Below, one piece after another: positions 2,127-25,554 of a stretch of DNA of 64,000 nucleotides. Within the stretch, counting starts at the first letter, position 1; every line of letters begins with the position of its first letter. The stretch lies in assembly GCF_054482525.1 (NCBI RefSeq), contig NZ_CM137006.1; one strand, 5' to 3'. A program made the position numbers and the translations under genes. A model generated the notes under the pieces. It worked only from the letters and a program-made list of their open reading frames with translations. It did not search any database and was not told the origin of the DNA.

Positions 2127-3050
2127 TTATTCACTCATCGCATCGCGCCAGATCTTGTCAACGATACGTTGCGCCAGCACTGCCTGTTCGCCGGCGGTTT
2201 GCGGAACTGTCTGATTTTGCACACATTCAATGAAGTGCCGCGCACAGCCGACAAATCCACGTTGCTCAAGCGTACTCTGCCAACCAGGAATCGGTTTATG
2301 CACTACGCCCTGCCCGCGCTCCTCACGCCATTCGCGCATATCTGTAATGTCGATGAGCGCACCGTCAGTCACGGCCTGCACGGTTTCACGCTGACTTCCG
2401 GCACGGCGATGCATACAGGTGGTGATCTGCAAAGGACCGACCGAAAAATGGTGCTCGGCAAACAGCATTTCGCCAGCGTCATTAGTCAGTAGCGTACCGC
2501 CATCCAGAGAGGCTTTACCGCCCGACAACCACAGCGCGGTATCCACCACATGCAGATAATCATCCAGCAACGTGAAATAAAGATCGTGTGGCCCGACGCT
2601 ATTGCTACGATGTTTATCCATTCTTAGCGAGGCTGCGGTGGCGAGTTGCGTTTTTAACTCACCGTAGAGTGGTGCGAAACGACGGTTAAAACCGACCATC
2701 AACGTCAGTTTTTTCCGCGCCGCAAGTTCCACCAGCCGTTCAGCATCGCGCAGATTTTCTGCCAGCGGTTTATCGACACAGACATGTACCCCCGCATTGA
2801 GTAACGTACTGACCACGTCAAAGTGGCTGGCGGTGCTGGAATGCACAAAAACCGCATCGCAACTGGCGGCAAGGCTGGATAACGAATCGGCATAAGGAAT
2901 GCGCCAGCTGTCACAAATTGGCAAGGCTTTCGCGCGCGTAGGCGACCACGCACCTTGTAACGTCCAGTCAGACGCTGCCGCCAGCACCGGTAACCACGCC
3001 TTTTGCGCGATGCCGCCTAACCCCACTACGCCGATACGTAATTTTTTCAC
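2127..3050 (-). CDS. yceM: putative NAD-binding oxidoreductase YceM (MviM)
   Basis: ORF 2127..3083; GTG start (VKKLRIGVVGLGGIAQ...) with GGAG 6-8 nt upstream gives 307 aa; Gfo/Idh/MocA-type N-terminus. Confidence 0.8.
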   Translation of the reverse strand: MKKLRIGVVGLGGIAQKAWLPVLAAASDWTLQGAWSPTRAKALPICDSWRIPYADSLSSLAASCDAVFVHSSTASHFDVVSTLLNAGVHVCVDKPLAENLRDAERLVELAARKKLTLMVGFNRRFAPLYGELKTQLATAASLRMDKHRSNSVGPHDLYFTLLDDYLHVVDTALWLSGGKASLDGGTLLTNDAGEMLFAEHHFSVGPLQITTCMHRRAGSQRETVQAVTDGALIDITDMREWREERGQGVVHKPIPGWQSTLEQRGFVGCARHFIECVQNQTVPQTAGEQAVLAQRIVDKIWRDAMSE

Positions 3051-3051
3051 T

Positions 3052-4294
<1,243 letters not shown>

Positions 4295-7248: not shown

Positions 7249-8295
7249 ATGACTGCACCATCCCAGGTATTAAAGATCCGCCGCCCAGACGACTGGCACC
7301 TTCACCTCCGCGATGGCGACATGTTAAAAACTGTCGTGCCGTATACCAGCGAAATTTATGGACGGGCTATCGTAATGCCCAATCTGGCTCCGCCCGTGAC
7401 CAGCGTTGGGGCCGCCGTGGCGTATCGCCAGCGTATTCTTGACGCCGTACCTGCCGGGCACGATTTCACCCCGCTGATGACCTGTTATTTGACAGATTCA
7501 CTAGACCCTAATGAGCTAGAGCGCGGATTTAACGAAGGCGTGTTCACCGCTGCAAAACTTTACCCGGCAAACGCAACTACTAACTCAAGTCACGGCGTGA
7601 CGTCAGTTGACGCAATCATGCCGGTACTTGAGCGCATGGAAAAAATCGGTATGCCGTTACTGGTGCATGGTGAAGTGACACATGCAGATATCGACATTTT
7701 TGATCGTGAAGCACGCTTTATAGAAAGCGTGATGGAACCGCTGCGCCAGCGCCTGACTGCGCTGAAAGTCGTTTTTGAGCACATCACCACCAAAGATGCT
7801 GCCGACTATGTCCGTAACGGAAATGAACGGCTGGCTGCCACCATCACTCCGCAGCATCTGATGTTTAACCGCAACCATATGCTGGTTGGTGGCGTGCGTC
7901 CACATCTGTATTGTCTACCCATCCTCAAACGCAATATTCACCAACAGGCATTGCGTGAACTGGTCGCCAGCGGTTTTAATCGCGTATTCCTCGGTACGGA
8001 TTCTGCGCCGCATGCACGTCATCGCAAAGAGAGCAGCTGCGGCTGCGCGGGCTGCTTCAACGCCCCAACCGCGCTGGGCAGTTACGCTACCGTCTTTGAA
8101 GAGATGAATGCTCTGCAGCACTTTGAAGCATTCTGTTCTGTAAACGGCCCGCAGTTCTATGGCTTGCCGGTCAACGACACATTCATCGAACTGGTCCGCG
8201 AAGAACAACAGGTTGCTGCAAGCATCGCACTGACTGATGACACACTGGTGCCATTCCTCGCCGGGGAAACGGTACGCTGGTCCGTTAAACAATAA
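7249..8295 (+). CDS. pyrC: dihydroorotase
   Basis: 348-aa ORF recognised as PyrC ([26 protein letters not shown]...). Confidence 0.95.
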
Positions 8296-8329
8296 AAATC
8301 GTAGCTTCCTGTTGTCATTAGGTTATTTT

Positions 8330-8349
8330 ACCTGTATAAATAACCAGTA
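8330..8349. promoter_or_regulatory. LexA (SOS) box upstream of dinI
   Basis: acCTGTataaataacCAGta matches the CTGT-N8-ACAG LexA consensus, about 20 nt upstream of the dinI ATG. Confidence 0.75.
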
Positions 8350-8368
8350 TATTCAACAGGGGGCTATT

Positions 8369-8614
8369 ATGCGAATTGAAGTCACCATAGCGAAAACTTC
8401 TCCATTGCCAGCTGGGGCTATTGACGCCCTGGCTGGCGAACTTTCCCGCCGTATTCAGTATGCGTTTCCTGATAATGAAGGCCACGTATCGGTACGTTAT
8501 GCCGCAGCGAATAATTTATCGGTTATTGGCGCAACAAAAGAAGATAAACAGCGCATTAGCGAAATTCTCCAGGAAACGTGGGAAAGCGCCGATGACTGGT
8601 TTGTCAGCGAATAA
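8369..8614 (+). CDS. dinI: DNA damage-inducible protein I
   Basis: 81-aa product MRIEVTIAKTSPLPAGAIDALAGEL... inside ORF 8237..8614; LexA box upstream. Confidence 0.9.
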   Translation: MRIEVTIAKTSPLPAGAIDALAGELSRRIQYAFPDNEGHVSVRYAAANNLSVIGATKEDKQRISEILQETWESADDWFVSE

Positions 8615-8635
8615 TATGCAGTGATTTTTGTTTTT

Positions 8636-8662
8636 GCCGGGTCGCCCCGGCTTTTTTATTTT
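8636..8662 (+). terminator. rho-independent terminator after dinI
   Basis: hairpin gccggg-tcg-ccccggc followed by ttttttatttt. Confidence 0.65.
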
Positions 8663-8903
8663 ACTTACAAATTTTGAGTACAAAATTTCTACACTTCCTC
8701 AAAATAATTGCACAATATGCTAAAAAAATATGAATGACATGCTGTTTTATTGTTCATATAAATCTTAAAAGCAAAAATTTATCTGTTCCCCCCTTTAAAA
8801 ATTCGGTGAATACCCTTACTTATTGGTATACTGAAGTTGCTTCAGATAAAAACGCATTGAACCTCGAATAACGTTGTCTAGTAACACGAATTAGGGGGCC
8901 ATG

Positions 8904-24514: not shown

Positions 24515-24786
<272 letters not shown>

Positions 24787-24841
24787 GGTGATGCTGCCAA
24801 CTTACTGATTTAGTGTATGATGGTGTTTTTGAGGTGCTCCA

Positions 24842-25117
24842 GTGGCTTCTGTTTCTATCAGCTGTCCCTCCTGTTCAGCTACTGACGGAGTGGTGCGTAA
24901 CGGCAAAAGCACCGCCGGACATCAGCGCTATCTCTGCTCTCACTGCCGTAAAACATGGCAACTGCAGTTCACTTACACCGCTTCTCAACCCGGTACGCAC
25001 CAGAAAATCATTGATATGGCCATGAATGGCGTTGGATGCCGGGCAACCGCCCGCATTATGGGCGTTGGCCTCAACACGATTTTACGTCACTTAAAAAACT
25101 CAGGCCGCAGTCGGTAA
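24842..25117 (+). CDS. insA: IS1 protein InsA
   Basis: 91-aa product [30 protein letters not shown]... recognised as InsA. Confidence 0.95.
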
Positions 25118-25539
25118 CCTCGCGCATACAGCCGGGCAGTGACGTCATCGTCTGCGCGGAAATGGACGAACAGTGGGGATACGTCGGGGCTAAATCGCGC
25201 CAGCGCTGGCTGTTTTACGCGTATGACAGGCTCCGGAAGACGGTTGTTGCGCACGTATTCGGTGAACGCACTATGGCGACGCTGGGGCGTCTTATGAGCC
25301 TGCTGTCACCCTTTGACGTGGTGATATGGATGACGGATGGCTGGCCGCTGTATGAATCCCGCCTGAAGGGAAAGCTGCACGTAATCAGCAAGCGATATAC
25401 GCAGCGAATTGAGCGGCATAACCTGAATCTGAGGCAGCACCTGGCACGGCTGGGACGGAAGTCGCTGTCGTTTTCAAAATCGGTGGAGCTGCATGACAAA
25501 GTCATCGGGCATTATCTGAACATAAAACACTATCAATAA
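25036..25539 (+). CDS. insB: IS1 transposase InsB reading frame (expressed as an InsAB' fusion by -1 frameshift)
   Basis: 167-aa ORF overlapping the insA 3' end; recognised as InsB. Confidence 0.9.
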
Positions 25540-25554
25540 GTTGGAGTCATTACC

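Follow-up and report, generated by a model that had tools for sequence, protein, structure and literature searches.

The LexA (SOS) box of dinI, ACCTGTATAAATAACCAGTA, occupies positions 8330-8349 of the 64,000-nt stretch of DNA analysed here (the window), upstream of dinI, and is assigned to neither strand. The evidence consists of the sequence itself, a leave-one-out weight matrix (PWM), identity to a published site and the orthologues, and it places the probability that the chromosomal E. coli dinI gene has this box as its single LexA operator at about 97%. Binding of LexA to the site in this strain is predicted from the DNA. The dinI operator is already known; it is real, functional and ordinary. 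It has little weight as a discovery, given that it has been in compiled lists of LexA sites for decades and that its promoter is a standard SOS locus. The box sequence quoted in the initial annotation is exact in the window. A true operator proved recognisable from the raw letters.

Layout of the operator and its gene

The box comprises a left arm, CTGT (8332-8335), a spacer, ATAAATAA (8336-8343), and a right arm, CCAG (8344-8347). All eight spacer positions are A or T, forming the (AT)4-like A/T-rich centre of such sites. CTG (8332-8334) and CAG (8345-8347) are located 10 nt apart and constitute the CTG-N10-CAG core of the gammaproteobacterial LexA box. The site had initially been described as a canonical LexA box that fits CTGT-N8-ACAG. 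It is a true dinI box with the CTGT arm and the CTG-N10-CAG core, but its right arm departs from the pattern by one mismatch, and "canonical" is generous wording for a box that agrees with the 20-nt consensus TACTGTATATATATACAGTA at 15 of 20 positions. Of the other 17 accepted boxes, six share the CCAG arm (recN, ruvA, uvrD, cho, uvrB and dinB), which indicates that the strict CTGT-N8-ACAG form is not defining.

The dinI coding sequence (81 aa and a stop codon at 8612-8614) extends from 8369 to 8614 on the + strand. Exactly 19 nt (8350-8368) separate the box from the ATG at 8369, a small correction to the earlier estimate of about 20 nt. A ribosome-binding site, AGGGGG, is located at 8358-8363 on the + strand, 5 nt before the ATG, as judged by sequence and orthologue conservation. 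The naming of the downstream gene as dinI is confirmed by the open reading frame, annotation and Pfam. Its product matches the Pfam DinI profile PF06183 with E = 2.1e-29 and 102.1 bits (cut-off 24.2) across profile positions 1-63 of 63 and belongs to the DinI family, and the E. coli PCN033 record (NZ_CP006632.1), which is 100% identical here, annotates the gene as dinI (WP_001217754.1, DNA damage-inducible protein I). For the dinI transcript, an intrinsic terminator spans 8636-8661 on the + strand and consists of GCCGGG-TCGC-CCCGGC and, after it, TTTTTTATTT. This hairpin (8636-8651) with its T-run is the sole + strand terminator-like site that the terminator scan returned in 8200-8900.

Identity with the known E. 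coli operator

The published 25-mer of the dinI LexA box, TTACCTGTATAAATAACCAGTATAT (PMC3009722, Table 4), is letter-identical to window positions 8328-8352. It originates from a UV tiling-array study in which dinI was one of the UV-induced genes from which the LexA motif was derived (PMC3009722). Over its full length the window aligns colinearly with PCN033 (99.95-99.99% identity, 99.97% overall), bar one 767-bp insertion. A 1-kb query around the box is 100% identical to PCN033, where the genes beneath it are annotated pyrC and dinI and the neighbourhood reads mdtH-grxB-yceB-pyrC-dinI-bssS-solA. The dinI box is also said to be listed by Fernandez de Henestrosa et al. in 2000 and by Courcelle et al. 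in 2001.

Of 5,426 complete E. coli genomes, 5,425 carry the dinI region. In 3,736 of these, including the K-12 derivatives DH1 and TG1, a B derivative and O157:H7, the 85 bp at 8296-8380, which contain the promoter, the box and the start codon, match with 100% identity. Because these 85 bp are identical in K-12 derivatives, regulation data obtained in K-12 transfer to the cis element of this strain. Three variants were sampled: box position 19 is changed from T to C in strain 510016, box position 9 from A to G in strain KBN10P04869, and the ribosome-binding site is altered in strain ET358. CTG and CAG are untouched in all three. E. coli ST2747 (NZ_CP007394.1) is without dinI and carries a 516-bp deletion equivalent to window 8333-8848, which begins within the LexA box just past ACC and stops ~50 nt short of bssS, such that pyrC is directly followed by bssS.

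Strength of the match against chance

With up to one mismatch allowed, CTGT-N8-ACAG has 16 matches in the 64-kb window compared with 17.3 ± 4.1 expected from shuffles, and the dinI site itself is one of the one-mismatch matches through its CCAG arm. The short pattern was rejected as evidence on account of this chance-level frequency and replaced by the leave-one-out PWM. Alone, it has zero discriminating power; the full 20-position model or conservation is needed to set the dinI site apart from the window's other 15 matches, which are due to chance. The count, together with surroundings that consist of AT-rich promoter DNA, favours the reading that the box is a chance short degenerate palindrome in AT-rich intergenic DNA with no operator function. 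This reading is nevertheless exceedingly improbable, as the matrix scores and the orthologues described below argue against it.

The matrix was symmetrised and built from 17 E. coli LexA boxes in PMC3009722 Table 4, which lists 18; dinI was left out. The dinI box scores 21.09 bits, the best value in the window and 7 bits clear of the next, and lies between the lowest (13.2 bits) and the highest (28.5 bits) of the 17 reference sites. The exact per-position probability of such a score is 5.4e-8, equivalent to 0.0034 expected sites per 64 kb or ~0.26 per 4.9-Mb genome, and is still 2.5e-7 with the background set at 36% GC. None of 300 first-order-Markov simulated windows reaches 21.09 bits (simulated maximum, 19.2). 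The leave-one-out Berg-von Hippel heterology index is 4.95, compared with a published value of 4.8 for dinI (Courcelle et al., 2001, as tabulated in PMC11228462, Table 1). Comparison with compiled LexA sites, a check named in the initial annotation, gave this score and index and the identical 25-mer of PMC3009722.

The next PWM match, CACTGGTTAATTAAACAGGC (14.2 bits, 43791-43810), lies within the 5' end of putA, and the third, CGCTGTGTGTAAATACACTT (13.3 bits, 52434-52453), lies within rutF. Both were dismissed as LexA boxes: chance alone predicts 0.2-0.3 matches of this strength per 64 kb, and both lie inside coding sequence. The PWM gave no second dinI operator, with no other position in 8280-8360 above 0 bits.

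Conservation across Enterobacteriaceae

Species-representative genomes were scanned, which provided 80 dinI loci from different Enterobacteriaceae species (Escherichia, Citrobacter, Salmonella, Enterobacter, Lelliottia, Kosakonia, Kluyvera, Buttiauxella, Atlantibacter, Cedecea and other genera). The box is kept at all 80. At 78 loci, a box of 19.5 bits or more lies no further than 150 nt from the ATG. The box-ATG gap measures 19 nt at 65 loci, 18 nt at six, 20 nt at four and 21 nt at one, which places 76 loci at 18-21 nt. In the two loci outside the 78, from Buttiauxella gaviniae and B. brennerae, GACTGTATAAATATCCAGTA is retained at a greater distance upstream. A small descriptive addition of the present analysis is that the arrangement of box, 19 nt and ATG recurs in almost all of the Enterobacteriaceae and in the majority of dinI copies carried by phages.

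In the two Buttiauxella loci (L068 and L086; locus about 1340-1480), an insert of ~120 nt lies after the box and before the ribosome-binding site. We take this insert (…GAGCTTACATAGGTAAGTGATTCGGGTGAGTGAACGCAGCCAACAAAGGGGCAACTTGAAGTATGACGGG…) to resemble an enterobacterial repeat of the ERIC/IRU type. A different insertion of ~40 nt is observed at the same spot in two Trabulsiella loci.

Information content was calculated from 63 distinct orthologous upstream sequences aligned on the ATG. The mean is 1.50 bits in the -35 hexamer, 0.43 bits in the spacer between the -35 and the box, 1.73 bits in the LexA box and 1.88 bits in the ribosome-binding site segment (8359-8364). Upstream of dinI, no segment is better conserved than the -10 hexamer, whose mean reaches 1.95 of 2 bits. 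As read from these alignments, the pattern is a textbook phylogenetic footprint. Retention of the box in 80 of 80 species while the adjoining spacer drifts is at odds with a chance palindrome.

The Escherichia box has C at positions 2 and 15 and, at 21 bits, is among the lowest-scoring of the 80 orthologues; its low score is due to the CCAG right arm and the C at position 2. Most genera have AACTGTATAAATAAACAGTA, the Citrobacter or Enterobacter form, or a similar box of 25-27 bits. It is conceivable, if rather doubtful, that the Escherichia operator is a weakened ancestral enterobacterial box, lowered to 21 bits by its two C residues where most other genera reach 25-30 bits. Combined with the lack of an intrinsic terminator after pyrC, an earlier or leakier dinI response, or a LexA roadblock to pyrC read-through, might follow. 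If true, the weakening would be a lineage-specific retuning of SOS timing and not a new kind of element.

Promoter anatomy and proposed repression

A predicted -35 hexamer, TTGTCA (8312-8317, + strand), matches TTGACA at five of six positions, and a predicted -10 hexamer, TATAAA (8335-8340, + strand), matches TATAAT at five of six. The hexamers were assigned by eye in the sequence, with orthologue conservation as support. The -10 lies 17 nt after the -35 and wholly within the LexA box, such that the operator overlaps the predicted TTGTCA-17-TATAAA promoter. The implied transcription start, some 7 nt past the -10 at ~8347-8348, would also fall inside the box. No + strand promoter was returned at dinI by the built-in promoter scan, which demands T at the last -10 position and consequently passes over TATAAA; its two weak minus-strand matches (8375 to 8346 and 8318 to 8289) are at chance level (2 versus 1.7). 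A mapped E. coli dinI transcription start was not found in the literature searched. The -35, -10 and start-site assignments in E. coli, and with them promoter occlusion as the mode of repression, are inferred with support from conservation and from the Klebsiella orthologue.

A LexA dimer would bind the imperfect palindrome CTGT-N8-CCAG; in-vitro binding of LexA to the E. coli dinI site was reportedly described by Lewis et al. in 1994. Since the predicted -10 and the likely start of this near-consensus sigma-70 promoter are inside the operator, bound LexA would occlude the promoter and exclude RNA polymerase. Upon DNA damage, RecA filaments would trigger LexA self-cleavage, the operator would empty and the strong promoter would fire. 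The resulting transcript would be short, carry dinI alone and end at the 8636-8661 terminator. Its product, DinI, modulates RecA filaments, a role reviewed in PMC6590174. Both lexA and recA are located outside the 64-kb window, and the mechanism presupposes that the SOS circuit of this strain is intact.

The block could also be read as the core promoter of dinI only, with an extended -10, in which the palindrome is incidental and damage induction is exerted by another regulator. The position of TATAAA within the block, as its most conserved part, is consistent with such a reading, as is the 2.3-fold contribution of SspA to dinI induction (PMC11228462, Table 1). CTG and CAG, however, barely overlap the -10 and serve no promoter function, yet neither triplet varies among the orthologues, and the phage dinI paralogues keep the CTGT...ACAG symmetry despite different spacers and -35 regions. 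These observations, and the LexA dependence reported in the literature, leave a promoter-only block with next to no probability.

Published regulation of dinI

In E. coli MG1655, AZT induces dinI 49-fold, and dinI expression under AZT falls 39-fold when LexA is non-cleavable (lexA3); the two values rank with the highest of the regulon (PMC11228462). The proposal of the initial annotation that dinI is tightly LexA-repressed fits these values, and the lexA3 effect argues against a block that acts as a promoter only. The Salmonella dinI gene is induced 22.8-fold by nalidixic acid (PMC8072944). In Klebsiella pneumoniae, the dinI LexA box overlaps a start site mapped by dRNA-seq, LexA ChIP occupancy of the dinI promoter drops after mitomycin C, and dinI expression rises in response to mitomycin C, ciprofloxacin and UV (PMC10907235). 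The ChIP signal at the Klebsiella orthologue is likewise contrary to the promoter-only reading, and published LexA-dependent induction in E. coli, Salmonella and Klebsiella opposes a chance palindrome. A LexA operator that overlaps the dinI promoter is the reading preferred here, and no observation contradicts it.

Bound LexA may in addition act as a roadblock to read-through from pyrC and insulate dinI from pyrimidine-regulated transcription. The pyrC stop codon (8295) ends 34 nt upstream of the box. Between it and the dinI start (8296-8368), no intrinsic terminator or stable RNA structure was detected by the terminator scan and the fold z-score, and the predicted fold of RNA 8270-8345 is no more stable than that of shuffled sequence (z = 0.04). 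The pyrC transcripts may end by another route or read into dinI. The roadblock is, on the other hand, purely inferential; it would be irrelevant if termination is Rho-dependent or read-through is low, and promoter occlusion alone explains the published dinI dynamics. We consider this additional role improbable.

Other features of the window

The single large difference from PCN033 is an IS1 copy of 767-768 bp in csgC, the curli chaperone gene, at 24788-25554 (approximate ends 24786-25553). The flanks carry a 9-bp direct duplication, CTCTGCATA, and matching sequences of other genomes bear the annotation IS1A/IS1B transposase. The best E. coli matches are split into three pieces, which indicates that none of the genomes among the matches listed has IS1 at the exact csgC position; HS and ST540 are among several genomes with IS1 close to csgC or ymdA.

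From phoH to tRNA-Ser (window about 33160-33850; PCN033 1176535-1177221), the reference annotates only a DUF2726-domain gene. In K-12, a pgaABCD/ycdT block presumably lies near phoH, and the content of this strain there seems different. A gene for a 447-aa hypothetical protein is located between putP and efeU at about 40280-41625. The yceH gene (window about 3050-3700) is annotated as a frameshifted pseudogene in the PCN033 record (1205909-1206560).

Comparison with known systems

The nearest known system is the dinI box of E. coli K-12, which has the same 25 nt, the same gene, the same pyrC-dinI-bssS synteny and a heterology index of about 4.8-4.95. No difference exists at the site, which represents this element as it occurs in a further E. 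coli strain, most similar to PCN033.

In Salmonella enterica Typhimurium (STM14_1331), the dinI box is located 19 bp from the ATG, as in the E. coli window, and has a heterology index of 4.00 (PMC8072944). A second, very weak box reported at 42 bp in Salmonella (heterology index 17.6) has no counterpart in window 8280-8360. The box of S. enterica subsp. arizonae, AACTGTATATATATACAGTA, scores 29.8 bits and is nearer the consensus than the Escherichia box.

The dinI-DinR locus of Klebsiella pneumoniae shares a LexA box at the dinI start and damage inducibility. It differs in an extra stretch before the terminator, described as Klebsiella-specific, from which the ftsZ-targeting sRNA DinR is produced (PMC10907235). 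In this window, by contrast, the terminator starts 22 nt after the dinI stop codon.

Prophage-borne dinI homologues belong to the same small DinI family and usually have the box 19 nt before the ATG. In the 77 phage-borne DinI loci from IMG/VR with sufficient upstream sequence, whose proteins are ~50% identical, a strong box is present at about 72 and is located exactly 19 nt from the ATG at 46. This agrees with the LexA boxes of the Gifsy-1, -2 and -3 prophage dinI copies in Salmonella (PMC8072944). The phage-borne boxes, typically TACTGTTTATTTATACAGTA with a median of 28 bits, are nearer the consensus than the E. coli box, and their -35 and spacer differ from those of E. coli.
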